Shown here piece by piece: positions 24,635 through 39,248 of a stretch of DNA of 39,801 bases. Within the stretch, counting starts at the first letter, position 1, and each line of letters begins with the position of its first letter. Under the pieces are notes generated by a model, which ran no database searches, was not told the origin of the DNA, and saw only the letters and a program-made list of their open reading frames with translations. Made by a program: the position numbers and the translations under genes. The stretch is from a virus, in IMG/VR virus record IMGVR_UViG_3300038559_000036. One strand, given 5' to 3'.

Positions 24635-24705
24635 GTTAAATTTTCCCTTTATCTAGCGTTAATCTAGGTAGGGATATGGCAATGTAGTTAGAGGTTAACG
24701 ATCCT

Positions 24706-25467
24706 TTAGCCTTTCAACCAAGGGGCGTTCTTAAAATCCTTCAACGTCATCTTGCCGCTATCCATACCGACCGAAGAAGATTTAAGTTTTGATAAAGGAG
24801 GAGGGGCACTAACATTGTTGGTTTTTGCTTCTAGATTATTGGCTATCGATTTCGATAACCTTTCTAGCTGTTTTGTCGCTAATTTAGGCGAGGTCTTAGC
24901 TAGTCCATCTATCTCTAACAGCTTTGATGGGTTATTAGCCAGCTCATACATAATCTCTGGCGTATTCTCCATTTGCGCTGCAAGCATTACCGCATTGGGA
25001 AATTTATCAGGTTCAAAATCACCCATGACTTCGTTAAAGTCTTCAAATAACTGAGAGCCTTTACCCATTTTAAGGTAGTACTGATCAGCAATTGTCTTTA
25101 ACTCATCTTCCTGAGTTTTTCTTTCAACCTCATCACGATGCTTTTGTAAATCCTGCATGAACTGTTCGTATACTTGCTGCTTAATAGCAGTAGCATCTAT
25201 TTCGCCTTTTGACGCTGGTTTCCCAGCAGCCTCAGCACGAACCTTTTCAAGTTCAGCTTGATATTCCGCTTGCGCCTGTTGACGCGCGCGTTCAGCAGCA
25301 TGAGCCTTTTCCCGTTTAACAATGTCATTCACCTGGCTAGTAGTCAGTGTCTTTTCAGTGCCACTGTCACTAACTGGCGCTTCGATCCCTGAAGCTTCTA
25401 TATCATCCATAAACCCACTATTTCCCCGTGACGGTAAAATAACCTCATGCGCTGAGTTCGCGACCAT
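24706..25467 (-). CDS. Scaffolding protein
   Basis: 253 aa, charged, Ala/Glu/Lys/Gln-rich and predicted helical/coiled coil. It is directly upstream of the capsid gene. Confidence 0.6.
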   Translation of the reverse strand: MVANSAHEVILPSRGNSGFMDDIEASGIEAPVSDSGTEKTLTTSQVNDIVKREKAHAAERARQQAQAEYQAELEKVRAEAAGKPASKGEIDATAIKQQVYEQFMQDLQKHRDEVERKTQEDELKTIADQYYLKMGKGSQLFEDFNEVMGDFEPDKFPNAVMLAAQMENTPEIMYELANNPSKLLEIDGLAKTSPKLATKQLERLSKSIANNLEAKTNNVSAPPPLSKLKSSSVGMDSGKMTLKDFKNAPWLKG

Positions 25468-25663
25468 TTATACCCGATGGCTCGGTAGTAACCTAAGTTT
25501 CTACATCCTGTATAAACCTAGTAATTTAACTTTAGTTTAATTTCTGAATTTGCGCAATGTTTGCACAGGATTTTGGGAATATCAGACTTATTTAGGGCGT
25601 GTCAATAACAAAGTGTTCTTTTTATTGGCGAGCATCAAACCTAGGTAGTTCCTCTACTAACAC

Positions 25664-25693
25664 TTGTAAAACCCGTACGGATTGTAGTATAGT
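25664..25693 (+). promoter_or_regulatory. Promoter candidate for yefM (TTGTAA-18-TATAGT)
   Basis: Hexamers read by eye at 25664..25669 and 25688..25693. It contains the GTAGTATAGT motif also seen upstream of two other plus-strand accessory genes. Confidence 0.3.
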
Positions 25694-25719
25694 TGGGATT
25701 GCTATTGTGGAGGTTTTAT

Positions 25720-25974
25720 ATGACAATTTTAAGCGTAAGTGCTGCAAGACAAAATTTATATAGTTTGGTTAATGAAATATCTGATGGGCATAAACCGATT
25801 TATATTAAAGGCAAAAAAAGCAATGCCGTATTGGTATCCGAACAAGAATGGAATAGCGTAAAAGAAACAGCATATCTTATGAGCAGCCCCTATAATGCTT
25901 TGGCTTTGATGAAATCAATTAAAGAAATAGAAAAAAATACACGCAAGAAAAAATCTAAAAAATGCCTAGCATAA
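25720..25974 (+). CDS. yefM: Phd/YefM-family antitoxin, no cognate toxin gene downstream
   Basis: MTILSVSAARQNLYSLVNEISDGHKPIYIKGKKSNAVLVSEQEWNSVKETAYLMSSPYN is the classic YefM signature. A GGAGG RBS lies 7 nt upstream of ATG 25720 (the track start at 25693 is a TTG extension). Only 138 non-coding bp follow before relB. Confidence 0.8.
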   Translation: MTILSVSAARQNLYSLVNEISDGHKPIYIKGKKSNAVLVSEQEWNSVKETAYLMSSPYNALALMKSIKEIEKNTRKKKSKKCLA

Positions 25975-26070
25975 TTTGCTTTAAAAGTATACGGCGAAAA
26001 AACGACCAAAAACTCCTCTTTTTTGATCCAATTTTTTATGTGCAAAAAGAGGTATATCTTTTGCTATAGC

Positions 26071-26090
26071 TTTGGTATACTTTGGTATAC
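26071..26090. promoter_or_regulatory. Operator candidate for RelB: tandem TTTGGTATAC x2 (each with GTATAC palindrome)
   Basis: Read directly, with a third related copy (atgttatac) following. It lies 23 bp upstream of the relB ATG. Confidence 0.45.
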
Positions 26091-26112
26091 ATGTTATACG
26101 GGGCGATACATT

Positions 26113-26325
26113 ATGCTTGCTATTAGAATTTCAGAAGATTTAGAACAACGCTTAACTAGACTGTCCGAAAAAACAGGTCGCACTAAAAGCTATTATGCTA
26201 GAAAAGCCATCCAAGAATTTATAGAAGATAGGGAAGATTATTTATTGGCAATTAGCGTGCTAGAACAAAAGAACCCTACTATATCTTTGGATGAATGGAG
26301 CAAAAAGAATGGTTTGGATGATTGA
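26113..26325 (+). CDS. relB: RelB/ParD-type ribbon-helix-helix antitoxin
   Basis: MLAIRISEDLEQRLTRLSEKTGRTKSYYARKAIQEFIEDRED shows a beta-strand then helix RHH pattern. It overlaps the downstream toxin gene. Confidence 0.8.
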   Translation: MLAIRISEDLEQRLTRLSEKTGRTKSYYARKAIQEFIEDREDYLLAISVLEQKNPTISLDEWSKKNGLDD

Positions 26326-26575
26326 ATTAGACAAAAAGGCCGTGAAACAATTGGACAAATTAGGGAAGCCAGCACAAAAACAAATAAGGGACTTTTTAGC
26401 GAATAAAATTAGGAGACTTAGTAACCCTCGCAGACTAGGTAAGCCCCTAAGTGGAACCCACAAAGGATTATGGAGCTATAGAACTGGGGTATATAGAGTT
26501 GTGTGTGAGATAAAAGACAGTACGTTAGTAGTAATTGTGGTTAATGTTGGACATAGAAAAAGCGTATATAGTTAA
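26309..26575 (+). CDS. relE: RelE/ParE-family toxin
   Basis: LGKPLSGTHKGLWSYRTGVYRVVCEIKDSTLVVIVVNVGHRKSVY is the RelE signature (G.YR...I.....V..VGHR..VY). A GGAG lies 8 nt upstream of ATG 26309. ATG 26318 is an alternative start. Confidence 0.85.
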   Translation: MVWMIELDKKAVKQLDKLGKPAQKQIRDFLANKIRRLSNPRRLGKPLSGTHKGLWSYRTGVYRVVCEIKDSTLVVIVVNVGHRKSVYS

Positions 26576-26772
26576 TCTCTCCGCCCATCATATCTTGGTA
26601 ATTCCTCTATTTCTTCTATAGACAAGCCCAAGCATTTACTTATTATCTCTGGGCTTACGCCAGCATTTAATAAGTTAATGGCAATTTCTCTAGCTTTTTC
26701 AATTTTCGCTTCTAAAATAATTAAAACCTCGTACGTTATAAAATCTGCTTCCGTATAATGTTCTTTATTCAT
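26572..26772 (-). CDS. Small protein resembling the C-terminal tail domain of Rpn/YhgA-like nucleases
   Basis: EAKIEKAREIAINLLNAGVSPEIISKCLGLSIEEIEEL matches, as I remember it, the conserved C-terminal (..IA.nmL..G.....I...tGLs.eEi..L) segment of the Rpn family. No nuclease domain is present. Confidence 0.4.
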   Translation of the reverse strand: MNKEHYTEADFITYEVLIILEAKIEKAREIAINLLNAGVSPEIISKCLGLSIEEIEELPRYDGRRD

Positions 26773-26852
26773 TCTTATATAGTAGGCGCATAATGAATGA
26801 TAAAAAATAGCATATACACTAATAATTTATGTTAGTGTATATGCGCTTAATA

Positions 26853-27206
26853 CTATATTCTAAGCTTTTTTTTAGCTGGCGAATTAGGAGCGTCAACTAC
26901 ACTAGCTACCGTAGATACAGCGCTTTCCACGCCCTCAACAATAGGTAATGCTTCTGGAGCAACAACACCAACTACAGTGTTAACAACAGGCTCAACAGCT
27001 TCTACAGTTGAAACAGCGGCCGCAACTTCCGGTTGAATATTAGAAACTGCGCTAGCAACATCGGATTCAATCTTAGGGGCTTCGGCTTCCACATGATGTC
27101 CAATGGCATCTATTTTAGCATGGAAATTAGCCATGGCTTCGTGTAATTCGGCTTTAAGTTTATTTAATACAGTCGTAATGCTTTTAGGTTGATTATCAGT
27201 AGGCAT
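26853..27206 (-). CDS. Hypothetical Ala/Val/Glu-rich protein
   Basis: 117-aa ORF in the accessory island. No motif recognised. Confidence 0.45.
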   Translation of the reverse strand: MPTDNQPKSITTVLNKLKAELHEAMANFHAKIDAIGHHVEAEAPKIESDVASAVSNIQPEVAAAVSTVEAVEPVVNTVVGVVAPEALPIVEGVESAVSTVASVVDAPNSPAKKKLRI

Positions 27207-27231
27207 CGTAACTCTCCTTGTTTGTTAAAAT

Positions 27232-27438
27232 TTATGGTGAACCAGGTTTATATTTAGGCGATGGCGGTAATTCTATAGTACGCCAATATTCAACTGAAGA
27301 TTCTCGGTGAAATTCGGCAAGTTCAGCCTCAGTAGGCGCATAATCTGAAAGGATAACGCAATCTTCTGCAATTTCGATTACCTTTTCATCTTCGGATTTT
27401 TCTGTTATTACAGGTACCGATTCATCTTCGTTTTTCAT
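27232..27438 (-). CDS. Small strongly acidic protein
   Basis: 68 aa, roughly a quarter Asp/Glu. It overlaps the upstream gene by 4 nt. Confidence 0.45.
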   Translation of the reverse strand: MKNEDESVPVITEKSEDEKVIEIAEDCVILSDYAPTEAELAEFHRESSVEYWRTIELPPSPKYKPGSP

Positions 27439-27650
27439 TTCTTTTTCTTTACCTTAAGAACTTTGTTAGCCTTAGCATCTATCTTTTCTTCTGTTTCTTT
27501 AGATATTTTACCCTTATGCTCCATCTCAGATGCACGAGCCTTAGCATTGGCAGCGTGAGATTTGTCAGGCACTGGAAACTTACGTGATTTGGGTAATGCA
27601 AACTCTTTTGGTTTTAATTTCTTTCTGGCGTTAGTTGTTAGTTTTGACAT
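27435..27650 (-). CDS. Small basic protein (F.LP..RKFPV.D..HA.NA.ARA motif)
   Basis: 71-aa ORF. I recall the motif from small phage/plasmid proteins of unknown function. Confidence 0.5.
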   Translation of the reverse strand: MSKLTTNARKKLKPKEFALPKSRKFPVPDKSHAANAKARASEMEHKGKISKETEEKIDAKANKVLKVKKKK

Positions 27651-27654
27651 TTTA

Positions 27655-27816
27655 TTAATCCTTTAAAAATAGTTTACTTCTTTCTTCTTCAAATTTAGCG
27701 TCAGCTAAAAGATTCTTATAACCTGAATCTTGATTCAACTCAAGAACCTCATATTGCTCCAAAGTAATCAGAGGCAGCGGCTTTAATGGCGGAAAGGTAT
27801 GTGATTTAGTTGTCAT
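27655..27816 (-). CDS. Possible 53-aa protein overlapping the methyltransferase stop
   Basis: Hand translation gives MTTKSHTFPPLKPLPLITLEQYEVLELNQDSGYKNLLADAKFEEERSKLFLKD. Its start overlaps the end of the MTase gene (coupling-type arrangement). It is below the track cutoff. Confidence 0.35.
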   Translation of the reverse strand: MTTKSHTFPPLKPLPLITLEQYEVLELNQDSGYKNLLADAKFEEERSKLFLKD

Positions 27817-28858
27817 TCGCTATCCTTTTAATCGCAATATCCATATATTCCTGTTGCTTTTCAATTCCTATGAACCTAAATCCCTCTAGCTTAGCAGCAA
27901 TTCCAGTTGAACCGCTGCCCATAAACGGATCGAGTATAACGCCATTAGGCGGTGTAACTAGTCTACATAAGTATTGCATTAATTTAATTGGTTTTACAGT
28001 GGGATGATTGTTATGTTGGCCTCTTTCTGCGGACGACGCTTTAGCACAATAGAAAAAGCGGGACGGCGAACCTAAACTTGCTTCTACCTCTTCGCTACCA
28101 TCGTGGATAAAGTTTGCTGGAAAACGGCCTGACACGGTCGATTTAAATTGCCTTGACACCCAATTATCATCGTGCATAACCCCTAAAGTTTTCATACTTT
28201 GATACGTTCTAGTTTCTGTTCCAACCCGACACCCATCGATATTAATCCCGCCAGTACCATGTTTTAGCACGTTACTTGCTATATTCTTTTCGCTTAGTGG
28301 TTTTCTTGCCACAATTATTGGCTCGTGTGCTGGTTTTAATTGAGAACCCCAGCCATCCCACTTTTTGGCATCGTATGTTGGCGGCGTGGTTATGTTAATA
28401 TCAATCCTTTCTTTAAGCTTGCTTTTTTCACTGCCAAACCCAGCGTTCCCCTTTATATCTTGGCTACTTTTTAAAACGCCTATAACCTCTCTTTCAGCAC
28501 CAGCCATCTTATCGATAGCCTTGCTAACATTTAAGTTTTTAGGAAAACCGCTTCCATAAACCCACATGATTTGATCCCGAATTTCAAACCCGGCATCTTC
28601 AATTGCACAGGCCATCCTATGATAAGTGCGGCTACCGCCGAACGCTAATAAATGGCCACCTGGCTTTAATACCTCTAGGCATAGTTTCCATAACTCGACA
28701 TCATTAGCAATGCCAGACTTATCCCAGCCTTTGTTCATAAACCCAAGTTCATACGGCGGGTCAGTAACAATTGCATCTACCTGTTGACCCTTTGCAATCA
28801 AATCCCTTATCGCATCTTTACAATCCGACAAGACGCAGACATATCCCTTGTCTAACAC
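27806..28858 (-). CDS. Orphan beta-class N6-adenine (or N4-cytosine) DNA methyltransferase
   Basis: Motif IV AIVTDPPYELGF lies near the N-terminus and motif I VILDPFMGSGSTGIAA near the C-terminus, which is the permuted beta-class order. DPPY favours N6-adenine. No restriction endonuclease gene is adjacent. Confidence 0.9.
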   Translation of the reverse strand: MLDKGYVCVLSDCKDAIRDLIAKGQQVDAIVTDPPYELGFMNKGWDKSGIANDVELWKLCLEVLKPGGHLLAFGGSRTYHRMACAIEDAGFEIRDQIMWVYGSGFPKNLNVSKAIDKMAGAEREVIGVLKSSQDIKGNAGFGSEKSKLKERIDINITTPPTYDAKKWDGWGSQLKPAHEPIIVARKPLSEKNIASNVLKHGTGGINIDGCRVGTETRTYQSMKTLGVMHDDNWVSRQFKSTVSGRFPANFIHDGSEEVEASLGSPSRFFYCAKASSAERGQHNNHPTVKPIKLMQYLCRLVTPPNGVILDPFMGSGSTGIAAKLEGFRFIGIEKQQEYMDIAIKRIANDN

Positions 28859-30963
28859 TATTCTTCCCTATGTTTGTGGGCTATTTCTGCACTTTTAATT
28901 ACATGCTCCACCGCAGTTCTAGCATTTTCGGAATCAACCTTTTCTTGCTCAATTCCAAGTTTGATTTGGTTCTGATTAATTTGCGCCATAATCTGCATAA
29001 ACTTAACATCAGTTAAGGTCTTCTCATTAGCAACTTTAGCAGCTTGGATAGCTAGCTCTCCTTCTTGTTTTTGTTGTTGTTGCTGAATCTTAGCCATCTC
29101 AATTTGTTTAATGGCCTCAGTTTGCTCACGCATTGCGGTTTCTTCAGGATTGCCTTGCTGTGCTTGTTGTTGTTTTTGTTCTTCTAATTGCTTCATAAAC
29201 TGAACGGCTTGAGCCTTAAGCCCCTCAATACCTCTAATGTCCATGTTATCTAGAATTGTTTCTAGCCCCATAGTATTAATAAACTCAGCAAACAATTGAC
29301 TGGACTGCATCATTCTAATTATTTGATCAAGCGCTACTTGTTTTTGTACTGCGCTACTAACCCCTGCTTCAACCTTAATCTGTAAACTATTTGGGTTGTA
29401 ACTAAAGTCTACGCTTTCAGGATTATTTGGGTGATTAATAATTTGGTAAGAGCGCTTACCGTCAGGCGCCTTTACTGGTAAGCTTCTAGGCGTTACATAA
29501 TACTTAGGAATTAAGTCAACAACTATTTGGGCAACCCTATTTAAGCCTCTAATATAGCCCTGTAAATAAGGAATGGCCGCAGCATTAGATTGCATTGCTC
29601 CTTGCTGTATGGCGACCCCTGATATTTGCTTATCGTTAGTTCCTAATATGGAATCATACGTACCTAATATAGTTTGGGTAACCTGATCGGTCCCCATAAA
29701 AGTCATATTAACAATGTCGGGAGTAGGGGTTCGTTGAACTTCTCTTGGGGGCGGTAATGGTTGCTCTGGATTATCTTTATAAAATGCGTTATAAACCAAC
29801 GTAGATGCTTGCTGTACGTTTTTATAAGCGTCCGCATAATCCTCTGGTATAGACTCAACTGCTACCATAAATTTATGTTGCACCATGTTTTCAATTTCGG
29901 CAGCAACGGTCTGTCCTGAGAAGTTTTTAAGTTGTTGCACACCTTTAGCATGATAAACAAAAGGCCTGGTCATCTGCATTGATGCATCATCTTCGTTTTC
30001 TCTAATTACCACACTATTGCCATCAATAAATACTAACGGGAAGAACTTATAGGATGTTTCTTCGTGAGACAGTACTTTATCTTCACAAACCATATAGCGA
30101 TCAATTGTTTCGATAATGGTTTCTCTTTCATCTATAAGAATGGGGGCTTGTTCAATAAACCCTTGATTACCCCATAGTTTAAGGAATTCCTCATAATGTT
30201 TTTTAACAATAGTATGGCCGTTAGAAAGTTTTACGATCTTCTCTTTCTTCTTTTTCTTGCAGTAGTAATCGGCAACCAGTATGATTTCTTGATCTTGATT
30301 TAAATAGCTCCAATTAAAATCGCCTACATGGCTCGATCTTTCAAACTTCATATTGTCGGCCGAGCCTTTACCGAATTCTTCTTCAAAATCTTCTTTTGAT
30401 TTAGGGATTAACTGAAAGCAGTAATTACCATCGCCCTTATGTGATTCTCTGGCTAACGGATCGAAGCCAGTTAAAGTTGGATCGAATACTCGCTCTACTT
30501 TAATATTTTGCTCAAAAGATAGCTCGTTAATGTAGCCTGTATAAACGTGGACAACACTATAACCACCAGCTAATAAGTCTGAATAAATGTTATACTCTAG
30601 TGCATCGTTGGAGGCGTCAAAGAAAATCTCTCTTAAATGCGCCTCTATTATTTCTAATGTTTGTAAAAATTCTGGGGTTAGCTCTTCAATTCGCACACCG
30701 TCGGCAGCTCTTGCCACTATTGATGGTTCTTGTTTCGCGAACTCGCCTCTTAGCCTTGAAATCATCGCTTCTAAGATGTTAAATTCTATTGCAGGTTTTT
30801 GTAGCACATCTAATTTAGTGATGTCATCGGACGATAACGAAGTCTGGAAGACAAACTTCATAAAGTCATTAAAGCGATTAACATTCTTTATAAAATATTC
30901 GTGCGCGTGCTCAATATTTTTCTTGATTTCGTTTAACTTATCCGTGTGCTTTTTAGCTACCAT
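28858..30963 (-). CDS. Portal protein (P22-like, with long Q-rich C-terminal coiled coil)
   Basis: 701 aa, in the terminase-proximal position. The C-terminal ~120 aa (QLEEQKQQQAQQ...KIQQQQQKQEGELAIQAAK) resembles the P22 portal barrel. Confidence 0.75.
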   Translation of the reverse strand: MVAKKHTDKLNEIKKNIEHAHEYFIKNVNRFNDFMKFVFQTSLSSDDITKLDVLQKPAIEFNILEAMISRLRGEFAKQEPSIVARAADGVRIEELTPEFLQTLEIIEAHLREIFFDASNDALEYNIYSDLLAGGYSVVHVYTGYINELSFEQNIKVERVFDPTLTGFDPLARESHKGDGNYCFQLIPKSKEDFEEEFGKGSADNMKFERSSHVGDFNWSYLNQDQEIILVADYYCKKKKKEKIVKLSNGHTIVKKHYEEFLKLWGNQGFIEQAPILIDERETIIETIDRYMVCEDKVLSHEETSYKFFPLVFIDGNSVVIRENEDDASMQMTRPFVYHAKGVQQLKNFSGQTVAAEIENMVQHKFMVAVESIPEDYADAYKNVQQASTLVYNAFYKDNPEQPLPPPREVQRTPTPDIVNMTFMGTDQVTQTILGTYDSILGTNDKQISGVAIQQGAMQSNAAAIPYLQGYIRGLNRVAQIVVDLIPKYYVTPRSLPVKAPDGKRSYQIINHPNNPESVDFSYNPNSLQIKVEAGVSSAVQKQVALDQIIRMMQSSQLFAEFINTMGLETILDNMDIRGIEGLKAQAVQFMKQLEEQKQQQAQQGNPEETAMREQTEAIKQIEMAKIQQQQQKQEGELAIQAAKVANEKTLTDVKFMQIMAQINQNQIKLGIEQEKVDSENARTAVEHVIKSAEIAHKHREE

Positions 30964-31068
30964 TTGAAATCCTTTTCTGGTGGTTGAACTACTTAGATAG
31001 ATACATTCCTTATATCTAAGTTTTTAGTATAGTAAAATCTAAGGAAATAACTATAAATGGGGATAAGA

Positions 31069-31305
31069 ATGGCACACATAGATACATTACAAGTATACAA
31101 AGAATATTTATCTGGGGGCTACACAGAAAGCCAAGCAATTACGGCTGTAAAGGCCTTGAATGCCTCATTTGACGGCGCAGCCACTAAAGAAGATTTAAAT
31201 AGCCTAGAAAAAAGAATAGATTCAAAGTTTGATGCTAAGTTCGGTATGCTAGAAAAAGCCTGCATAGCAATAATTGTGCTGCTTCTGAAGGTAGCTTTTT
31301 GGTGA
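31069..31305 (+). CDS. DUF1640-like coiled-coil protein with C-terminal TM anchor (paralogue 4 of 6)
   Basis: MAHIDTLQVYKEYLSGGYTESQAITAVKAL...AATKEDLNSLEKRIDSKFD followed by the hydrophobic tail. A GGGGAT RBS lies upstream of ATG 31069. Confidence 0.7.
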   Translation: MAHIDTLQVYKEYLSGGYTESQAITAVKALNASFDGAATKEDLNSLEKRIDSKFDAKFGMLEKACIAIIVLLLKVAFW

Positions 31306-31306
31306 T

Positions 31307-31459
31307 TCATATTTTTTCCCTATGGTTGCCTCTAGTGGCTTCAATCCGTTGATCTATCCAGTTGTCTACCTCGCTCTCAAGCCAGCCAACCGATCTGGCT
31401 GAAAGTTTTATAGGTTTAGGGAAAACACCTTTAGAGACTTTTAAATAAGATACCGAACC
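31307..31459 (-). pseudogene. 5'-truncated/frameshifted AlpA-like HTH gene remnant
   Basis: A 50-codon open frame reads GSVSYLKVSKGVFPKPIKLSARSVGWLESEVDNWIDQRIEATRGNHREKI. This is the AlpA C-terminal two-thirds, but there is no start codon. The only upstream ATG (31485) is in another frame and stops after 14 codons. Confidence 0.5.
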
Positions 31460-31527
31460 CTATTGTTCTTTATAATAGGGTTCATAAAGCCATAACGCAT
31501 TGAAAATTAAGGAAATTAAGGTAGACT

Positions 31528-31704
31528 CTATTGTTTTTTGGGAGATCCTTTTTTTGCCCATTCTGGCCTAATAAAGCTAGCCATGCGCTTTGCTGTAGTT
31601 GGGTCAAATTCTTTATTACTTAACCAATCAATTACATCTTGATTCCTTGGATGCTGTTTTTCTTAGTACAGGCTCAGCTTAGATAATGTTTTATATTCTT
31701 TCAT
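31528..31704 (-). pseudogene. Small ORF interrupted by an in-frame TAA at codon 14
   Basis: Hand translation gives MKEYKTLSKLSLY*EKQHPRNQDVIDWLSNKEFDPTTAKRMASFIRPEWAKKGSPKKQ. The stop codon lies at 31663..31665. Confidence 0.3.
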
Positions 31705-31725
31705 TGTACAAAAATGGATAACCAA

Positions 31726-31862
31726 TTTCGTACAATTAAACGATGCTTTTCGTACAATAATTAAGGTTTTCGTACAATTCTTTATCGTTTTCGTATTATG
31801 GATAACAATTTTCGTTAAAGTTGTGCTATTTTCGTACAATTATTTAATTAATTTCGTACTAT
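31726..31862. repeat. Iteron-like array: 7 direct copies of TTTCGTACAAT-like 11-mers spaced 20-22 bp
   Basis: Copies start at 31726, 31748, 31768, 31789, 31810, 31830 and 31852. Four are perfect through TCGTACAAT and three are degenerate. TGGATAAC(C)AAT also occurs twice, at 31714 and 31798. Confidence 0.9.
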
Positions 31863-32104
31863 AAATTGTTATTTTTAAAAAATTTATTTGCACTAGAAAA
31901 CTTCCTGTTCAGATTTTCTACTGACAAATTTTCTTTTTCAGGAAATTTATTTGCAATATCATCAATTAGTTTATTTTGAGTTTTATAAGGGGTAATACTA
32001 TTATGTTCATCATGTCCTTTTGATATTAGCACACGTAATAAGCTGCCTATATGGTAATCATATATTTCTTTCTCCTCCACGTAGGAGCCCAGCTTTTTGA
32101 ACAC
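31859..32104 (-). CDS. Hypothetical 81-aa protein in accessory insertion
   Basis: ORF only, Lys/Asn-rich, no motif recognised. Its stop overlaps the last iteron-like copy. Confidence 0.4.
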   Translation of the reverse strand: MFKKLGSYVEEKEIYDYHIGSLLRVLISKGHDEHNSITPYKTQNKLIDDIANKFPEKENLSVENLNRKFSSANKFFKNNNL

Positions 32105-32129
32105 ATCAACATTTGACTCTAATGAGTTA

Positions 32130-32252
32130 TAAATAGCCTAGAAAAAAGAATAGATTCAAAGTTTGATTAAAGTTATGATTACAGTATAATTTATTTGATG
32201 TTCTTTATTAGCCGTTAGTAGTTCTGCAAAAACACTAACGGTAGCTTTTTGG
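32130..32252 (+). pseudogene. Duplicated 3'-end fragment of the DUF1640-like gene at 31069..31305
   Basis: 32130..32167 is a perfect 38-bp copy of 31196..31233 (encoding NSLEKRIDSKFD), followed here by an immediate stop. GGTAGCTTTTTGG is also repeated, at 31290..31302 and 32240..32252. Confidence 0.7.
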
Positions 32253-32258
32253 CCTTAA

Positions 32259-33818
32259 TTATTTTCTAGACCTCCTAATGGCTGTCAGTTTAGTATTAAA
32301 ATCTTGCGCCAATGATTTAAGTATTGGTGCGCTTGGGTTTGGCTGTTCCCTAAATGCCGTAACAGGATAAGCAAAAGTTAAACAAAGCGCGTCCGCTTCG
32401 TCTGACGACCTGATTCCCCTCTTTTTCATATCTTCCTTTTTCTCCATAACCAATCTAGAGTTGGAATCAAAACTATAGCGTATACCGCATAAATCTGCAT
32501 GTAAGCTGTCTACATCTGGTATTTGTACTGGGATATCCTCTAGCCAATTGGCGCACTTACCCCACATCTCAGCACGCTTATTTGAATACTTCTGGTCGTC
32601 TAAGCTTTTTGAACCAGCGTTAACCGCAACGACAGCCTCCTTGTGGCCTAATTCATTAAGCCTGTCGACAACACCAGCTCCCAATCCGCCGACATCAACA
32701 AACACCTTTAAAGGCCGATGCTGTTCAATCAATGAATGAACAATGCCAGTTACCTCCATTGTGTCTTTCTTGGTATAGCTTTGTAATCCAAATGCCACAC
32801 GGCCTTGCCTAAAGATTATTGAAGTGCGATCATCACCAAATCGGGCAGGGTCAACCCCCATAATTAAAGGGCCGTATTTCTCTGCCGTTTCTTTTCTCGC
32901 TCGCATTACTATTGATGAATCGATAAATGAATTCTCGCCTTTAAGTTGGAAAGCCTCATTTGGATTGCATGGATATTCCTGGCAAAAGCTTTTCTCCCCG
33001 TCTTGACCGTTAACTGATAAATCAGTAATTTTAAATCGCCGCCAGGCTATCTGCTCTAAGGTTAACCGATAAGCTTCAATTAAGCGTAACTCTATATGAT
33101 TAGGTTTAAAGTCCGGCGACGTTTGTCTTTTATATTCGTCTTGCCAGAACCATGGAACAAAGATAGCTATAAAATCAGACATGCCGCCCTCTGCTTTTTG
33201 CCACATCTGATGAAAGTAATTACCAACCCCGTTAGCGGTTGATTCCAATATGATCTCTGTTCCTGTTGCGTCTGGCACGGCTTGCAGTATACCTTTAGTA
33301 TGCTCGTGAGCATTTGCCCAAAAGGCAATCTCAGAGCCATGGAATAATTGAATAGTACTGGAGCGCCCAACCGCTTTATTTTCGGCTGTTCCTAGTTTAT
33401 ATCCGCTATCTAACCGCCCAAAGATAAGCTCTTTAGAGTTGTTGGTGCTAATATCAGGCTGAACTAAGTTTGGGGTATTCTGATAAAACCGCTGCGCCAT
33501 CTTAAATAGATTATTGGTAGCATCTAATGCATGAGTTAAGATAAAGCATTGTGTCCCCTTATTATGCGTTGTTTTATGGTAGTATCTGCCGCCAACATAC
33601 GTACTGCATCCTTGTTGTCTTCCTTTCAAGATCAGTGCTCTAACTCTACCTGTTTGTCTTCTTTGATCTTCTAATCGCTCATGTATATACTGCTGCGCTT
33701 TATTTAAGACAAACGGCGCAATCTCACCTTGCTTAGTGCGGATTTTAAGACAACGCGAAGCATAATGTATAAAGTTGTCTTTTAAAAGTTGGCGTGTCTT
33801 AATCTCGTCATCAGTCAT
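32259..33818 (-). CDS. terL: Terminase large subunit
   Basis: 519 aa with the Walker A-like ILKGRQQGCSTY and C-terminal nuclease-type acidic motifs (VFVDVGGLGAGVVDRL, SSDEADAL). It overlaps the upstream gene by 8 nt. Confidence 0.85.
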   Translation of the reverse strand: MTDDEIKTRQLLKDNFIHYASRCLKIRTKQGEIAPFVLNKAQQYIHERLEDQRRQTGRVRALILKGRQQGCSTYVGGRYYHKTTHNKGTQCFILTHALDATNNLFKMAQRFYQNTPNLVQPDISTNNSKELIFGRLDSGYKLGTAENKAVGRSSTIQLFHGSEIAFWANAHEHTKGILQAVPDATGTEIILESTANGVGNYFHQMWQKAEGGMSDFIAIFVPWFWQDEYKRQTSPDFKPNHIELRLIEAYRLTLEQIAWRRFKITDLSVNGQDGEKSFCQEYPCNPNEAFQLKGENSFIDSSIVMRARKETAEKYGPLIMGVDPARFGDDRTSIIFRQGRVAFGLQSYTKKDTMEVTGIVHSLIEQHRPLKVFVDVGGLGAGVVDRLNELGHKEAVVAVNAGSKSLDDQKYSNKRAEMWGKCANWLEDIPVQIPDVDSLHADLCGIRYSFDSNSRLVMEKKEDMKKRGIRSSDEADALCLTFAYPVTAFREQPNPSAPILKSLAQDFNTKLTAIRRSRK

Positions 33819-34128
33819 CGTATGACTTATTGTTTTTTTCGTCCATCATTTTATCATTCCATTTATACGAAGCTTTTTTCCGTAAACTCTTTATAGCGTT
33901 ATCTCTAATTTGAGACGGCCTCGACCAGCTCACTCCAAACGTAGTGGCTATTTCTCTAAAAGTTAAGCCGTCTCGATAAAAAAAGTTTATTACCTGCTGC
34001 TGCTTAGTTGGTAATTGTTTAATATAATCTGGCAATTCTGTTACGGTTATAAGTACACGCCCTTCAAAGTTACCGTTAATTAGCTCTAATAATCGCTCAA
34101 AGCTATGCGAGCGCACACTATAGTTCAT
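33811..34128 (-). CDS. Sigma-70 region-4-like HTH protein (late regulator or packaging accessory)
   Basis: QQQVINFFYRDGLTFREIATTFGVSWSRPSQIRDNAIKSLRKK is a typical region 4.2 / LuxR-type HTH. Confidence 0.55.
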   Translation of the reverse strand: MNYSVRSHSFERLLELINGNFEGRVLITVTELPDYIKQLPTKQQQVINFFYRDGLTFREIATTFGVSWSRPSQIRDNAIKSLRKKASYKWNDKMMDEKNNKSYDD

Positions 34129-34400
34129 CTTTTATCCCTTGTTATTGGTGCTTGCTTTTGATGGGATTCGTGTTTTTTACGTATTAATTGTAATCTTTTA
34201 ATATTCTCTTCTAAAGTAAAACAGCTCGCCAAACTAAAGGCCAATCGTTTTGCTTGCTCTATCTTTTTTGCTAATTTATTAAAACACTCCGCTGTATACC
34301 CACATCCTGTAAGTGGGCTTATATTTTCTAGCGTTTCCTCTATCTCATAGAGGTTTTGTACTATTTCACTTACCAAATCACTTGCATTTAATTCACTCAT
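34125..34400 (-). CDS. Hypothetical protein
   Basis: 91-aa ORF with 4-nt overlaps on both sides. Confidence 0.45.
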   Translation of the reverse strand: MSELNASDLVSEIVQNLYEIEETLENISPLTGCGYTAECFNKLAKKIEQAKRLAFSLASCFTLEENIKRLQLIRKKHESHQKQAPITRDKR

Positions 34401-34594
34401 TCTCTTAACACTCCTTCTAACTTTTGTTTAAATTCTGCCAAAGTAATTGGCGTTACATCAATGGTGCTTGGTGTCATAAACTCGTAGAACATTACAGCTA
34501 ATGCATAAAAGTCTCCTGGAGTTAGCGCATCAAATTCTTTGTTGTTTATAATAGGCGGCCAATTCGGTCCTTGCAGATCTGGTAATGGCCTCAT
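34397..34594 (-). CDS. Hypothetical protein
   Basis: 65-aa ORF with 4-nt overlaps on both sides. Confidence 0.45.
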   Translation of the reverse strand: MRPLPDLQGPNWPPIINNKEFDALTPGDFYALAVMFYEFMTPSTIDVTPITLAEFKQKLEGVLRE

Positions 34595-35079
34595 TTCAAA
34601 AGCTCCAGCGCATCCTCATGTTTAATATTAACTGTTGATTCGCTATGAACTCTGTCGCCATAAATTTTTGGTATTAGTTTTGATGTTAACCATTTACGAG
34701 TGTCAACTCGTAGTCTTGCGTGTTGTATTTCTTCACTAGTAATTTTTGGTTCATCACAAATATCTATAATTTGTTCTGCGAATAGATCGGCCTGAATAAG
34801 TTTAGCCTGTGCGTAGCGTGCAGCAAATTCTGGGTAATTAAAGCGCCATTCCATAAGGGTTTGGCAACAAGGAAAGTCTGGATTTGAATCACACATTCTG
34901 CGCATACCATCTGTGCAAGTGGATACCTTGTGGCAAATTTTATTTGCTAATGCTTCCGTATAATTTGTTGGTCTGCCAGGAGTGTGTTTACTTTTTACGC
35001 TTAGCTTGATTGTGGGTAGTTTTGCTATCTGTTTTTTTAACTTCTCGCGATTCTTCTCTTTTTGCGTCATTGGTGACAT
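34591..35079 (-). CDS. terS: Terminase small subunit
   Basis: GRPTNYTEALANKICHKVS...TLMEWRFNYPEFAARYAQAKLIQADLFAEQIIDICDE...RLRVDTRKWLTSKLIPKIYGDR matches the widespread TerS pattern (GRP..Yt.e.a..IC ... W......F...Y..A......d......D.......R...D.rKW..sK..PkkYGd). Confidence 0.7.
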   Translation of the reverse strand: MSPMTQKEKNREKLKKQIAKLPTIKLSVKSKHTPGRPTNYTEALANKICHKVSTCTDGMRRMCDSNPDFPCCQTLMEWRFNYPEFAARYAQAKLIQADLFAEQIIDICDEPKITSEEIQHARLRVDTRKWLTSKLIPKIYGDRVHSESTVNIKHEDALELLK

Positions 35080-35254
35080 CCTTGTCTATTGTTGGTTTAA
35101 CTTCCCCATCATTTAAAGTAATGCTATCGCCACTCCATGGCTCGTCTGGGGTTTTTTCTAAGCCTGTGCCTTTACAGATGCCGCATTCACCCATTATCAT
35201 CCCTAGTTTCATAATCTTTTTATTGCCGTTACAGGCTGTACATCTGCGCTTCAT
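34988..35254 (-). CDS. Small zinc-finger protein (DnaJ-type CxxCxGxG x2)
   Basis: CTACNGNK and CGICKGTG motifs lie in the first 35 aa. The C-terminal 30 codons overlap terS in another frame. Confidence 0.5.
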   Translation of the reverse strand: MKRRCTACNGNKKIMKLGMIMGECGICKGTGLEKTPDEPWSGDSITLNDGEVKPTIDKDVTNDAKREESREVKKTDSKTTHNQAKRKK

Positions 35255-35289
35255 AATATGAACCTCCTTGTTATATTATAGTTTATTAA

Positions 35290-35688
35290 TCATTTACAAA
35301 GCATGCCAATTATTCCGCCTAAACCAGCTATTAAAAATGCCATAATCCAACGGTGGTTAATGCTCATCTCGCTTCTAAGTAAACCAATTTCTGTTTTTAA
35401 GTCTTGTCTTGCTAAATCAAATTTAGAGTCAGTTCTAGTTTCCAGATTGGCAATATCTTGTCTTGCTAAATCAAATTTAAAGTCAGTTCTAGTTTCCAGA
35501 TTGGCAATATCTTTTCTAACTAAATCAAATTTAGAGTCAGTTCTAGTTTCCAGATGTTGTAAATATTCTTTAGTTGCCAAATGACTAATAGCATTATCAA
35601 ATGCCATTGCTTGATTAAATGCTTGTTCGTCTGGTATTCCTGCTTTAACTAATTCATGGTAATAAACTAATGCGTTTGATGTTGCCAT
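35290..35688 (-). CDS. DUF1640-like coiled-coil protein with C-terminal TM anchor and 18-aa tandem repeats (paralogue 5 of 6)
   Basis: MATSNALVYYHELVKAGIPDEQAFNQA...HLATKEYLQHLE, then ETRTDSKFDL(V/A)R(K/Q)DIANL about 3 times, then the TM tail IMAFLIAGLGGIIGML. ATG 35688 is preferred because it has the same GGGGGATTGAAT leader as paralogue 6. Confidence 0.75.
   Translation of the reverse strand: MATSNALVYYHELVKAGIPDEQAFNQAMAFDNAISHLATKEYLQHLETRTDSKFDLVRKDIANLETRTDFKFDLARQDIANLETRTDSKFDLARQDLKTEIGLLRSEMSINHRWIMAFLIAGLGGIIGMLCK
35403..35554. repeat. 54-bp tandem repeat, 2.8 copies, inside paralogue 5
   Basis: Units start at 35403, 35457 and 35511. Read directly, with a few substitutions. Confidence 0.9.
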
Positions 35689-35704
35689 ATTCAATCCCCC
35701 TTTT

Positions 35705-35986
35705 TTATATTATCCTAAAGTACTTTAAAACGATGGCCACAATAATAGGTAATATAAATCCTACTAATAATGTGCTTCCTAAGGAATACACGAAGAAAAT
35801 TTTTAAGTCTTTTTCTAGCATTTGTAATCCATTAGTAAACTCATTTTTGGTTAATAATAAATCTTCTTTGGTTACTAAATCAGAATGATAAACTCCTAAG
35901 GACTTTACCGCTGTCATTGCCTGAGCCTCAGTATAACCACCTTCTAAGTATTCTTTGTACATTTGTAATGTATCTATGTTTGCCAT
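35705..35986 (-). CDS. DUF1640-like coiled-coil protein with C-terminal TM anchor (paralogue 6 of 6)
   Basis: MANIDTLQMYKEYLEGGYTEAQAMTAVKSL...DLVTKEDLLL followed by the TM tail LLVGFILPIIVAIVL. It is nearly identical at the N-terminus to paralogue 4. Confidence 0.75.
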   Translation of the reverse strand: MANIDTLQMYKEYLEGGYTEAQAMTAVKSLGVYHSDLVTKEDLLLTKNEFTNGLQMLEKDLKIFFVYSLGSTLLVGFILPIIVAIVLKYFRII

Positions 35987-35988
35987 AT

Positions 35989-36168
35989 TCAATCCCCCTT
36001 TTTATTATTATCTTCTTTTTTAATTCTTTCTTCCAGCCAAAATCTAGCCAAGCTAGATGGCGACATGCCCCTTTTACGTGCAAGTACGCTTAATTTATTA
36101 CGCGTTATGGATGTCAATCTCACACTTAAAGGAGTTCCTAATAACTCTTTTTCTGTTTTATCCAACAT
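35989..36168 (-). CDS. Ribbon-helix-helix (CopG/Arc-type) regulator, 59 aa, first gene of the leftward operon
   Basis: Hand translation gives MLDKTEKELLGTPLSVRLTSITRNKLSVLARKRGMSPSSLARFWLEERIKKEDNNKKGD, a beta-strand plus two-helix RHH pattern. It is below the track cutoff and abuts the divergent control region. Confidence 0.55.
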   Translation of the reverse strand: MLDKTEKELLGTPLSVRLTSITRNKLSVLARKRGMSPSSLARFWLEERIKKEDNNKKGD

Positions 36169-36184
36169 TTTTATAAACTACCTC

Positions 36185-36212
36185 TTGACATTGTGTCGTT
36201 TTGTATTACAAT
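36185..36212 (+). promoter_or_regulatory. Rightward early promoter candidate TTGACA-16-TACAAT with overlapping 7-bp inverted repeat
   Basis: TTGACA at 36185..36190 and TACAAT at 36207..36212. ACATTGT at 36188..36194 and ACAATGT at 36208..36214 form an operator-like inverted repeat covering both hexamers. Confidence 0.45.
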
Positions 36213-36219
36213 GTAGTTA

Positions 36220-36247
36220 TTATTACACAAAAACATAAAAATTACAA
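36220..36247 (-). promoter_or_regulatory. Leftward promoter candidate TTGTAA-16-TAATAA (minus strand)
   Basis: Hexamers read by eye on the minus strand. It would fire towards the RHH gene through the same inverted repeat, face-to-face with the rightward promoter. Confidence 0.3.
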
Positions 36248-36260
36248 GAAGAGGCAAATA

Positions 36261-36434
36261 ATGAGAACTTATACTATCAATACAGAATATGTCCAAGAGC
36301 GTCCGTTTTTTAACTGGATAGCCAACCTAGACAATTATTCGGGTGGCGATTGCCTTGGAAAAGGTGATACCGAATTCGAGGCAATAGAAGATTTATTTAA
36401 TCAATTAGAATTGAACCAGGAGGAAATAATATGA
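36261..36434 (+). CDS. Small acidic early protein
   Basis: ATG 36261 (MRTYTINTEYVQERPFFNW...) has an AGAGG RBS. The track start at 36201 lies inside the promoter. It overlaps the next gene by 4 nt. Confidence 0.5.
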   Translation: MRTYTINTEYVQERPFFNWIANLDNYSGGDCLGKGDTEFEAIEDLFNQLELNQEEII

Positions 36435-37294
36435 TAAACGGTATATACGACAATTTAGACATTAACGAATACCACGCAGATAATAGCATTAGCTCAACTG
36501 GTATCAATTTGATACTAGATTGTCCTAAACGGTATTACTACGAATATCACGTAAAACGTACAGAGTTAGACGAGAAAGAATTAAAGAAACAAGCAGAAAA
36601 ATATAAGCTCGGACGTGCTGTTCATACACTTGTATTAGAGCCAAAAAAATTCGATAATACCTTTTATTGTATGACAGAATCAGTGAATTTATCTACAAAG
36701 ATTGGTAAAGAGATTTACGCTCAAGCTGAGATTACAGCTAATGGACGAGATATTTTAAGAACTGGCGAATGGGAAGATATTAAAGACATGGCTAACGTTA
36801 TAGCTGCACATCCTGTTTGGAACGAGCTAAAAGACGGTAAAGTTGAGCAATCTATATTTTGGGAAGGTGGCACATTTGATACACCACTTAGATCAAGGCC
36901 AGATATTTTTAATGATAAATTAATAATTGATCTTAAAACCACTGATTCAATTAAAGCGTTTTCAAATTCTATTTATCAGTATGGCTATCATAGACAAGCT
37001 GCTATGCAGATAGACGCATTAAAACAATTAGATGGTAAAAAAAGATTCTTTGCCTTTTTCGTAGTTGAGAAAAAACCGCCTTATTTAACAGCCTGCTTTA
37101 CTTTAGACGAAGGCTCGTTAGCGCAAGGCAGACTAGAATATCTAGATGGTGCAGCTTTATATACTGAATGTGTAAGATATAAAGAATGGCCAGGGTATGA
37201 AGAAAAATTCCAATTAATATCATTACCTAATTGGGCAAAAATGAAAGAATTAGATAATCAAGCAGGGGGATTAAAATGCTTAGCTCAAATGTAA
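36431..37294 (+). CDS. RecE-like PD-(D/E)xK exonuclease (DUF3799-type)
   Basis: It has the N-terminal YHADNSISSTGINLIL.CP..YYYEY, RPDIFNDKLIIDLKTTDS (D...DxK) and a QYGYHRQAAMQ motif. It is paired with a RecT-like gene. Confidence 0.75.
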   Translation: MINGIYDNLDINEYHADNSISSTGINLILDCPKRYYYEYHVKRTELDEKELKKQAEKYKLGRAVHTLVLEPKKFDNTFYCMTESVNLSTKIGKEIYAQAEITANGRDILRTGEWEDIKDMANVIAAHPVWNELKDGKVEQSIFWEGGTFDTPLRSRPDIFNDKLIIDLKTTDSIKAFSNSIYQYGYHRQAAMQIDALKQLDGKKRFFAFFVVEKKPPYLTACFTLDEGSLAQGRLEYLDGAALYTECVRYKEWPGYEEKFQLISLPNWAKMKELDNQAGGLKCLAQM

Positions 37295-38196
37295 AGCCAA
37301 TTAAACCAAAACAAACGTTAACAGAACTTTTAGCGGATACTGATAGCAATATCTATTATACCCTTAAAAATTCGATTTATCCTGGCGCTAAAGATGAATC
37401 TATAGGAATGGTTTTAGCATATTGTAAAGCTAAAAAGTATGATCCAATAGCAAAACCTGTTCATATTGTGCCTATGAGTGTAAAAAACAGTCAAACTGGT
37501 AGTTATGAATATAGGGATGTTTTAATGCCTGGTATTGCATCATATCGTATTGACGCTGATAGAACTGGGCTATATTTGGGAATTAGCGAACCTGAATACG
37601 GTCCAACGATAACAGAAAGGTTGGGAACTATAGAAATATCTTATCCTGAATGGTGTAAGATGACTGTAGAAAAATATAATCCTACTAGCGGTAAAAGCTC
37701 TTTCTTTTCTGCCAAAGAGTATTGGAAAGAAAACTACGCAAACAAGGGTAAAATAAAAGGAACATCACAAGTTGATGAAACCCCTAATGCTATGTGGGCA
37801 AAAAGACCTTTTGGACAAATAGCTAAATGTACAGAGGCTCAAGCACTTAGGAAAGCTTTTTCAGATGTTCTTGGTGTGCATCCAACCTTTGAAGAAATGG
37901 AAGGTAAAGAGCCGAAAGATGTTGTTAGTGTTGTAGATCTAGTTGATGTCGGCGCTACCGTTACTGCTGAACAATTAGATATTGTTAAAAGCAAAATAAT
38001 ATTGTCGGATAGCGAAGAAATAGCGTTATGTAATTATCTAAAAATTAACAGTTTAGATCATATGCTAGCAAAAGATTTCGCTGATGTTATAAGGCAGCTT
38101 GATAAAAAAATTGATAAGCAACAAAAGATTAATAGTTTGCCTATTAACAAAGTGTTTGAAGAAATCAGCACAAATGACTTGCAAGAGGCAAATTAA
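37276..38196 (+). CDS. recT: RecT/Bet-family single-strand annealing protein
   Basis: MVLAYCKAKKYDPIAKPVHIVPM, PGIASYRIDADRTG and NAMWAKRPFGQIAKCTEAQALRKAF match the RecT/Bet core (W....p..Ml..KA...a.R.AF). Confidence 0.8.
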   Translation: MLSSNVKPIKPKQTLTELLADTDSNIYYTLKNSIYPGAKDESIGMVLAYCKAKKYDPIAKPVHIVPMSVKNSQTGSYEYRDVLMPGIASYRIDADRTGLYLGISEPEYGPTITERLGTIEISYPEWCKMTVEKYNPTSGKSSFFSAKEYWKENYANKGKIKGTSQVDETPNAMWAKRPFGQIAKCTEAQALRKAFSDVLGVHPTFEEMEGKEPKDVVSVVDLVDVGATVTAEQLDIVKSKIILSDSEEIALCNYLKINSLDHMLAKDFADVIRQLDKKIDKQQKINSLPINKVFEEISTNDLQEAN

Positions 38197-38350
38197 AATA
38201 TTACCATTATCCTGCATTTTTTTATTCTTAGATCTGTTAGTGATTTGAAAGACCGCTAACAGATTACTCCTGACCTAAAGGAGCTTCTAGAACTTCTTTA
38301 GGTTAGCTTAATGAGAATATCCTAAATTGTTAATTAATCATGGCTGATAT

Positions 38351-38397
38351 TTAGCCCTTACGGTCCTCCCTGGGTTTCCGTATGGGCTAAATTTTTT
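38351..38397 (+). terminator. Rho-independent terminator of the early rightward operon
   Basis: ttagcccttacgg ... ccgtatgggctaa forms a 13-bp imperfect stem, followed by attttttat. Confidence 0.6.
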
Positions 38398-38404
38398 ATG
38401 GCTA

Positions 38405-39124: not shown

Positions 39125-39158
39125 GTAATTTACTCCCTGTAAATAACTGACGTTTGGT

Positions 39159-39187
39159 TTGACTTTAGTGGCTAATCGTCTGATACT
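39159..39187 (+). promoter_or_regulatory. Promoter candidate TTGACT-17-GATACT, antisense to the leader of 38405..39124
   Basis: Hexamers read at 39159..39164 and 39182..39187. Confidence 0.35.
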
Positions 39188-39193
39188 TTCCCT

Positions 39194-39248
39194 TTATCCA
39201 TGCAAAATAATTTTGCCCTAGGAACTTAACTCCGCCTAGGGCGTTTTT
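39194..39248 (+). ncRNA. Candidate ~55-nt countertranscript (antisense to replication-gene leader)
   Basis: It is bounded by the promoter candidate above and by the hairpin gccctagg-N12-cctagggc (39215..39242) followed by gttttt. No plus-strand ORF is present here. Confidence 0.25.

Follow-up and report, generated by a model that had tools for sequence, protein, structure and literature searches.

A decayed insertion between terL and portal of a P22-portal virus, probably a layered scar of helper–satellite recombination

The genes for the large terminase (terL) and the portal protein usually stand next to each other in P22-like phages, and the virus record IMGVR_UViG_3300038559_000036 raises the question of what has come to lie between them. 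This window (39,801 nucleotides, the whole stretch of DNA that was analysed) appears to be a complete genome of ~39.8 kb with a P22-like portal and plasmid-like features. In it, a foreign-looking segment separates terL, upstream (32259..33818, - strand; phrog_2, 2.6e-31), from portal, downstream in the late operon (28858..30963, - strand; PF16510 P22_portal, E = 2.6e-75). An earlier note on this DNA read the segment as a single plasmid- or satellite-like module, acquired by recombination within a DUF1640-like gene and now partly decayed. Its premise of normal adjacency was borne out: among terL relatives taken from IMG/VR for comparison, the terL-portal gap is 6-92 bp in about three dozen distant ones (50-79% terL identity). 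Of the reading itself, the foreign and satellite-derived character, the entry through a DUF1640-like gene and the decay stood, but the single module did not. The segment is very probably a multi-layer helper–satellite recombination scar, in which a 625-bp piece from the regulatory region of a satellite, a parasite of phages, is combined with a second, separate fragment that looks like the orphaned replication origin of a plasmid.

The donor of the first layer was found through alpA. Alleles of the segment that keep this gene intact encode a 66-aa AlpA protein (AlpA66), and the exact protein is also encoded on a 14.4-kb JGI contig, L159, in a very different setting. The gene order there is integrase, a 244-aa gene, alpA, a 74-aa gene, a primase-helicase, a homologue of the Sf6-type small terminase (TerS), and cargo that includes a Sel1-repeat protein (7161-7994). 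The integrase (415 aa) has Arm-DNA-bind_3, Phage_int_M and Phage_integrase domains; AlpA66 matches the full PF05930 profile (E = 7.7e-19); the primase-helicase (794 aa) has PriCT_2, Toprim_3 and AAA_25 domains; and the TerS homologue (148 aa, PF20901) is 40% identical to the window's TerS (35079 to 34591, - strand). These four genes all point in one direction. De Sousa et al. 2023 (PMC10085698) list five core components of phage-inducible chromosomal islands (PICIs), and L159 has four of the five (integrase, alpA regulation, primase-replicase and small terminase); in the 8.6 kb examined of its 14.4-kb contig, no Pfam match to capsid-morphogenesis, tail or lysis genes was seen.

Two alignments tie this candidate satellite to the window. 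L159 2132-2637 corresponds to window positions 31663 to 31290 at 99-100% identity, the window lacking 132 bp of it, and L159 2625-2717 corresponds to window positions 32252 to 32160, with 100% identity over 93 bp, microhomologies included. One contiguous 625-bp satellite stretch (L159 2093-2717) is thus present in the phage, circularly permuted and opened at a 13-mer that both partners share. It begins in the 3' end of the 244-aa gene, runs through a 68-bp hairpin unit and through alpA with its promoter, and stops in the 5' part of the 74-aa gene. In the window it forms two blocks. Block 1 (31303..31663, - strand) runs from L159 2624 back to 2132, minus the 132 bp, at 99.1-100% identity; its portion at 31528..31662 (- strand) holds the last 44 codons and the stop of the 244-aa gene, identical to the C-terminus of the L159 open reading frame (ORF) at 1533-2267. 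A protein search with this C-terminal part of the small ORF had returned no word-sharing candidate, and its identity came later, from L159. Block 2 (32168..32239, - strand) is L159 2638-2709, the antisense of the first ~100 nt of the 74-aa gene, and the stretch 32168-32258, tried as a frameshifted DUF1640 tail, was dropped after this match. The claim that the 3' end of the target gene is duplicated on both sides of the segment falls with it, since 32168-32239 is the antisense 5' end of a satellite gene.

The direction of transfer reads as satellite to phage, because the 244-aa and 74-aa genes are whole in L159 across both homology boundaries while the phage holds only their ends, permuted, and because the synteny of alpA, the 74-aa gene and primase is conserved in independent islands. 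The same order of alpA, a 74/75-aa gene and primase occurs in islands at a tRNA-Ser gene (L164, an NCBI metagenome-assembled genome) and at a transfer-messenger RNA (tmRNA) gene (L184); between L159 and L164, the 74-aa proteins are 88% identical over their full length and the N-terminal halves of the primases 75% identical. L164 12121-14178 encodes an ankyrin-repeat protein with a CBUA0006_C domain, and this cargo, together with the Sel1-repeat protein of L159, hints at an intracellular, Coxiella- or Legionella-like host.

Where, then, does the insertion begin and end? The earlier note took a 38-bp duplication as its bracket; the real limits are the two copies of the 13-mer GGTAGCTTTTTGG, at 31290..31302 and at 32240-32252 (both + strand). 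The pair alone is not significant (E about 0.6), and we take the 13-mer as the phage–satellite crossover point because its copy in L159 (2625-2637) has the window's sequence from 31303 onward on one side and the window's sequence up to 32239 on the other. The first copy, the left limit, lies within the target gene ("paralogue 4"; 31057..31305, + strand), which runs antisense to terL and portal and encodes an 82-aa DUF1640/CCDC90-like small membrane protein (phrog_17872, 4.4e-7; the match to PF07798, DUF1640, is weak, E = 0.025, with 14.9 bits against a cutoff of 33.5). The gene now ends in KVAFW and a stop, its TGA coming from the insert. Its orthologue in a related phage, L183, ends in KVAFWP and a stop, coded by ...GTAGCTTTTTGGCCTTAA; therefore the second 13-mer with its trailing CCTTAA (32240..32258, + strand), which encodes VAFWP and a stop, is the stranded original 3' end of the gene and the right limit of the insertion. 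By this comparison the true insertion is the 937 bp of 31303-32239, at the target gene's last codon. In L183 (~91% identical in the RecT region), the orthologue is 79 aa long and is followed after 16 bp by an intact 70-aa alpA (L183 2808-3276) that is 80% identical to the satellite's; the pair stands in the early region upstream of TerS, a second and different arrangement.

The 38-bp duplication itself, at 31196-31233 and 32130-32167 (+ strand), was present as described (38/38), as were the 13-mer repeat, an AlpA remnant without a start codon, a seven-copy array and an 81-aa ORF. It extends to 43 nt at 95% identity (within-window blastn E = 7.6e-16), but its place in the structure is internal. 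Its source is a 59-bp piece of the target gene (31175..31233, + strand) limited by the microhomologies GCGCAGCC (31175-31182) and AGTTTGAT (31226-31233), and 32130-32167 is the remnant of a 59-bp target-gene copy that joins the two satellite blocks and closes the permuted fragment. The full set of joints is preserved in an allele lacking the second layer (variant A, below). Read from terL to portal, it consists of the terL stop, TTAAGG, the 13-mer, satellite 2638-2709, ATCAAACT, 43 nt of target gene, GGCTGCGC, satellite 2101-2624, the 13-mer again, and the remaining target gene. All switches fall at microhomologies common to both partners, of 13, 8 and 8 bp; a 20-bp phage–satellite homology produced by BLAST extension was dropped on inspection, the actual microhomology being 8 bp.

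The satellite's alpA survives in the window as a remnant only (31307..31459, - strand). It matches PF05930 (E = 3.6e-11) over profile positions 21-51 of 51, so that the full winged-helix domain with a start codon is absent, and it has neither promoter nor ribosome-binding site nor the ~22 N-terminal codons. The scar of a 132-bp deletion between TTATTTAA microhomologies lies at 31441..31448; intact 66-aa alpA is present in the satellite and in two of the allelic variants described below. Beside the remnant, a perfect 10-bp inverted repeat, GAACCCTATT / AATAGGGTTC (31456..31484; fold -17.8 kcal/mol, z = -2.0), lies within the 68-bp unit, which is single in the window and the satellite and doubled in variant A. 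Rfam returned nothing relevant, and searches of the phage collection at the DNA level gave no matches for the region (distant mode) or for 28000-36000 (near mode).

The second layer is a 466-bp block (31664..32129) that stands in place of 52 bp found in variants A and B. Of those 52 bp, 13 belong to the copy of the target gene and 31 to the satellite, and the 8-bp microhomology makes up the rest; at the junctions of the replacement the homology is 1 nt at most, and the block is 100% identical in all carriers. No source for it was found: it is absent from the satellite, the phage collection and the plasmid collection, the replication modules of relatives (retrieved via RecT) contain no such iterons and no ORF81, and iteron-pair pattern scans of viral, genome and metagenome collections gave no donor. 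The matches of those scans were a coding-sequence coincidence (FRTIHMHFRT), unrelated tandem arrays, and one window-type contig (L129). A transposon origin, whether an insertion sequence or a miniature inverted-repeat transposable element (MITE), was rejected, since neither 31303-32239 nor the 466-bp block ends in terminal inverted repeats and no transposase is present.

The block holds an iteron-like array (31703..31862, + strand) of seven direct copies and one inverted copy of TTTCGTACAAT. Four copies are perfect and the others have 1, 2 or ~3-4 mismatches; the direct copies begin at 31726, 31748, 31768, 31789, 31811, 31830 and 31852, a spacing of 19-22 bp (mean 21), and the inverted copy (31703-31713) overlies the start of a 13-codon gene stump. 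The 11-bp core is conserved and the spacers vary, and TTTCGTACAAT occurs nowhere else in the window at one mismatch or fewer. Two DnaA-box-like TTATCCAT motifs lie at 31714-31721 and 31798-31805 (- strand); TTATCCAT gives the first 7 bases of the TTATCCACA consensus and then T for C, and perfect TTATCCAC clusters are found instead in the phage's Rep region. An AT-rich stretch adjoins the array (31840..31960; 13-27% GC, with 13% at 31840-31899). Phased direct repeats (at least three) and an AT-rich tract, as looked for in an iteron-type origin, are thus both present at 31703-31960, but beside the array there is no cognate Rep gene, only the stump.

The stump (31663..31704, - strand; MKEYKTLSKLSLY) is the 13-codon start of a further gene, and it ends in a TAA (31663-31665) made at the junction with block 1: the breakpoint, 31663, is the third base of that codon. 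What had been described as a small ORF with an in-frame stop (31528..31704) does contain the stop, but it is a chimera of these 13 foreign codons and the 44 codons of the satellite's 244-aa gene, with the stop formed at the junction and no point mutation. At the other end of the block, ORF81 (31859..32104, - strand; 81 aa) starts with GTG and has no ATG, and its frame remains open upstream into the 38-bp repeat, so that it may be what is left of a gene that lost its 5' part, or may not be a gene. The homology searches that the earlier note proposed placed the alpA remnant in PF05930 but gave no credible homologue for ORF81: a protein search found only itself, an exhaustive HMMER search added only spurious matches to HYR-repeat surface proteins, and an AlphaFold single-sequence model (predicted local distance difference test score 65) was too poor for a fold search. 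Taken together, the block looks like an orphan iteron-type origin whose neighbours have been cut away.

An array on the same TTTCGTACAAT core was seen in an unrelated contig, L148 (2188-2320), 145 bp upstream of a Rep_3-family gene (ORF 814-2043; PF21205, E = 9e-6). We regard this likeness as an analogy and not as a sign of homology. Further unrelated metagenomic and genomic contigs (L124, L130/L142, L115 and L150) have arrays of 19-22-bp period on the TTTCGTACAAT core, which may be a recurring target of Rep proteins or may reflect the search pattern.

The two layers vary independently among assemblies. In variant A (L014-16, L082, L083, L102/L161, L155, L157, L158, L160), alpA is intact (66 aa) and the 466-bp block absent, the target-gene duplicate has its full 59 bp (31175-31233) and the 68-bp unit is usually doubled. 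Variant B (L105) has a truncated alpA and no 466-bp block; variant C, the window's state (window, L013, L084/L088, L099-L104, L163), has the truncated alpA together with the block; and variant D (L153, L154, L156, L162) combines an intact alpA with the block. Intact-alpA alleles account for ~15 of ~27 informative loci. More than 20 independent assemblies (JGI, ENA and IMG/VR) share the junctions, which are therefore not an assembly artefact. The conserved, intact segment that would have spoken against the earlier reading was seen only in part: sister genomes keep alpA intact, and other close relatives lack the whole segment. Two further elements differ among these assemblies. A 143-bp MITE-like element, whose terminal inverted repeats of ~43 bp (GGGTGCGACTAAAAGTGTCAC...) are perfect and which has duplicated 8 bp of its target (AGATAGAT), lies between the portal start and the target-gene leader in L102 (3134-3276), L100, L157, L082 and L161 and is absent from the window (site 30995-31002). 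In L102, L154, L155, L157, L158 and L160, terL has 786 aa instead of 519, owing to an 804-bp in-frame insertion with an Intein_splicing domain (PF14890) at ~33599-33603 (codon ~72); the window's terL has no intein.

From these observations we propose that the segment arose in steps. At the outset, an antisense DUF1640-like gene with its own promoter would have stood between portal and terL, ending in ...GGTAGCTTTTTGGCCTTAA against the terL stop codon. The 625-bp satellite stretch would then have been inserted at the 13-mer in circularly permuted form, its ends joined via the 59-bp target-gene copy and its flanking 8-bp microhomologies GCGCAGCC and AGTTTGAT. A small circle, formed as an intermediate of recombination, could have integrated by one Campbell-type crossover, or four serial template switches could have taken place at microhomologies while helper and satellite co-replicated in one cell; the RecT protein and the DUF3799/PD-(D/E)XK exonuclease, both encoded in the window, could plausibly have promoted either route. 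The phage may also have formed a cointegrate with the whole satellite and then lost most of it by a templated deletion. A block from a third replicon later replaced 52 bp, shortening the duplicate from 59 to 38 bp and creating the "in-frame stop", and the deletion between the TTATTTAA repeats took the alpA promoter together with the N-terminal codons. As no imported gene is intact in the window, the segment there is most likely inert, a scar that late transcripts have to cross. What it leaves behind would be ~450 bp of near-perfect satellite homology, a substrate for further recombination, and putative orphan protein-binding repeats.

Several points weigh against this reconstruction. The comparison with phages lacking the segment did turn up segment-free relatives but no empty site: all contigs with the target gene carry the insert, and the predicted empty-site junction, CTGAAGGTAGCTTTTTGGCCTTAA, is absent from IMG/VR. 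The ancestral state is therefore drawn from the L183 orthologue, which is located at a different locus. L159 is called a PICI-like satellite from gene content alone, in 8.6 of its 14.4 kb. The Campbell circle and template switching would leave the same sequence, so that either may have operated; likewise, the replacement and the deletion may have occurred in either order, and the presence of all four combinations would fit allele recombination as well as recurrent events. The 80%-identical alpA of L183 means that alpA may have moved in both directions between these phages and satellites. Finally, that the segment is inert is something we infer, and the frequency of intact-alpA alleles leaves room for a function that the insert may have had and that was lost in the window's allele.

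This last point leads to a further alternative. It is unlikely, in our judgement, that the helper phage-plasmid population keeps the satellite DNA as a working part of the helper–satellite conflict. If it did, an intact alpA borne by the helper would supply the satellite's activator and so mistime satellite induction, or ~0.5 kb of perfect homology would couple the two (in cointegrates or by co-packaging), the orphan array would be a Rep sink against a competing replicon, and the window would be one frame of a fast cycle of gain and loss. In its specific form, a maintained device in which helper alpA mistimes or titrates satellite induction and the array titrates a competitor's Rep (by incompatibility or handcuffing), with the window's allele inactivated recently, we hold it to be quite unlikely. 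It draws support from the many sister contigs (variants A and D) in which alpA is intact and has its native upstream region, from the array, whose conserved core and variable spacers are as for binding sites rather than for simple tandem duplication, and from the proposal that AlpA mediates helper–satellite cross-talk (PMC10085698). The window's own alpA, however, has no start and no promoter, no Rep gene or matching iterons were found elsewhere in the window, in the satellite or in the relatives' replication modules, and the multiple independent deletions resemble decay; the carriers are 99-100% identical, a level at which selection is not assessable.

Very unlikely is the reading from which the analysis set out, that of one plasmid- or satellite-like module brought in by a single homologous-recombination event in the DUF1640-like gene, with the 38-bp repeat as its duplicated crossover and point-mutation decay thereafter. 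The segment is indeed a foreign one bracketed by direct repeats of the target gene, its GC is low (0.25 in 31600-32050 vs ~0.40 in the flanks), and variant D holds an intact alpA and the iteron/ORF81 block together. Yet the satellite matches the alpA part at 99-100% and has neither iterons nor ORF81, variants A and B have the alpA part with 52 bp, missing from the window, where the block would be, the in-frame stop falls exactly on a breakpoint, and the permutation of the satellite DNA turns on the 13-mer rather than on the 38-mer. The occurrence of all four presence/absence combinations makes the alpA and iteron/ORF81 parts independent of each other. The reverse transfer, in which L159 captured an alpA region native to the phage, we consider highly improbable, for although PICIs are known to capture helper genes (PMC10111431) and L183 has its 80%-identical alpA beside the target-gene orthologue, both the intactness in L159 of the two genes that cross the boundaries, of which the phage has only permuted ends, and the conserved arrangement in islands integrated independently at tRNA and tmRNA genes stand against it.

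How does a scar of this kind compare with known systems? The nearest situation on record is that of the helper-embedded PICIs described by Tommasini, Mageeney and Williams (HE-PICIs; 2023, PMC10111431). These are complete satellites that have entered a late gene of the helper at an att site by means of their integrase and are able to excise. The segment resembles them in that satellite DNA of the int-alpA-pri type lies in the late region of a presumed helper, with alpA co-oriented with the late genes. Unlike them, it has only 625 bp of internal satellite sequence with no integrase, no primase and a truncated alpA. That sequence is permuted, with its joints at microhomologies that fall between alpA and the following gene rather than at attP, and its target is not a late gene but an antisense accessory gene; 31303-32239 has none of the defining features of the HE-PICI class. 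To the Gram-negative PICIs and P4-like satellites (PMC10085698), the likeness is on the side of L159, with its integrase, alpA, primase-helicase and small-terminase homologue and its relatives at tRNA and tmRNA genes. The P4 markers psu, sid and delta, however, were not seen in L159, and the window's element is only a fragment. Seven repeats phased at ~21 bp with an AT-rich tract beside them, motifs resembling DnaA boxes, and an inverted repeat copy that overlies the start of the neighbouring gene liken the 466-bp block to the iteron-type theta origins of plasmids, such as those of Rep_3 replicons; unlike them, it has no Rep gene but only 13 codons of the adjacent ORF, only the 11-bp core is conserved, and no donor replicon was found. 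A further likeness is to phage morons and mosaic junctions, the products of illegitimate recombination over short homologies when elements co-replicate: between two late genes stands an accessory gene under its own promoter, the cargo differs among close relatives, and new joints fall at 8-13-bp microhomologies. What sets the segment apart from the usual cases is that the donor can be named and is a satellite rather than a phage, and that the insert is permuted and contains a templated copy of the target gene. The segment is better described as a mosaic junction at a moron site with a satellite donor than as an HE-PICI, and it is not a new kind of system.

The surroundings of the insertion fit that description. 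In a close clade (95-97% terL identity), the terL-portal gap is 673-738 bp and is filled by two other antisense DUF1640-like genes; homology to the window reaches from one side to 31065, a few bases beyond the ATG, and from the other to the terL stop at 32259, so that these close relatives retain the leader and the first three codons but have different DUF1640-like cargo. Because a conserved leader is followed by differing cassettes between these homology limits, the terL-portal site is a hot spot for accessory genes, with exchangeable cargo behind a common leader. In the window this promoter-like leader (31019..31053, + strand) is 91% identical to 15862-15896, the leader of the paralogue at 15926. 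The target gene is one of five DUF1640/CCDC90-like paralogues in the window, with clear paralogy to 35705-35992, 35290-35694, 15926-16237 and 16287-16550. The paralogue at 35290-35694 contains 2.9 in-frame copies of a 54-bp unit (...LETRTDSKFDLARQDIAN..., at 35402-35555), and the terL-portal cassettes of relatives contain similar coiled-coil repeat expansions.

Elsewhere in the genome, a ParA (AAA_31) gene lies at 2174-3145 and an HTH_36/DnaD_N Rep-like gene at 39124 to 38405 (- strand), which holds three perfect TTATCCAC boxes (38733-38785). A 136-bp tandem array spans the window ends (39403-39801 into 1-120) and adjoins this Rep-like gene. The earlier note heard in it, and in the AlpA-like gene nearby, an echo of the segment's layout at 39403..307; this likeness dissolved on comparison, since the two AlpA-like proteins share 24% identity across 37 residues (E = 0.018) and the two arrays are not related. 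The window proteins that were tested include no integrase, and this, together with ParA, the Rep-like gene and the array, suggests a phage-plasmid lifestyle. In relatives, toxin-antitoxin pairs (ParE/Phd or YoeB/Phd) lie downstream of the head genes, which points the same way. Right after ParA, in a 477-aa ORF (3149-4582), an 11-bp unit (AAAGTGGAGTC or CAAACGGGAGT) forms long arrays of up to 18 copies at 3449-3711 and 3984-4052; these may act like a centromere or be repetitive coding sequence.

For annotation, the lesson is that no small "ORF" within 31303-32239 should be listed as a gene. The analysis also ties a previously unnoted family of PICI-like islands to a candidate helper, a P22-portal phage with ParA and Rep genes, on the basis only of shared DNA and the TerS homologue. 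Gene flow between helpers and satellites is usually described as running from helper to satellite, or as the entry of whole satellites into helpers by integrase. Here, a probable transfer from satellite to helper can be read directly and to the base pair, with its donor, its recipient, the exact 8-13-bp joints and the later steps of decay, and the locus would thus offer a natural case of illegitimate recombination.

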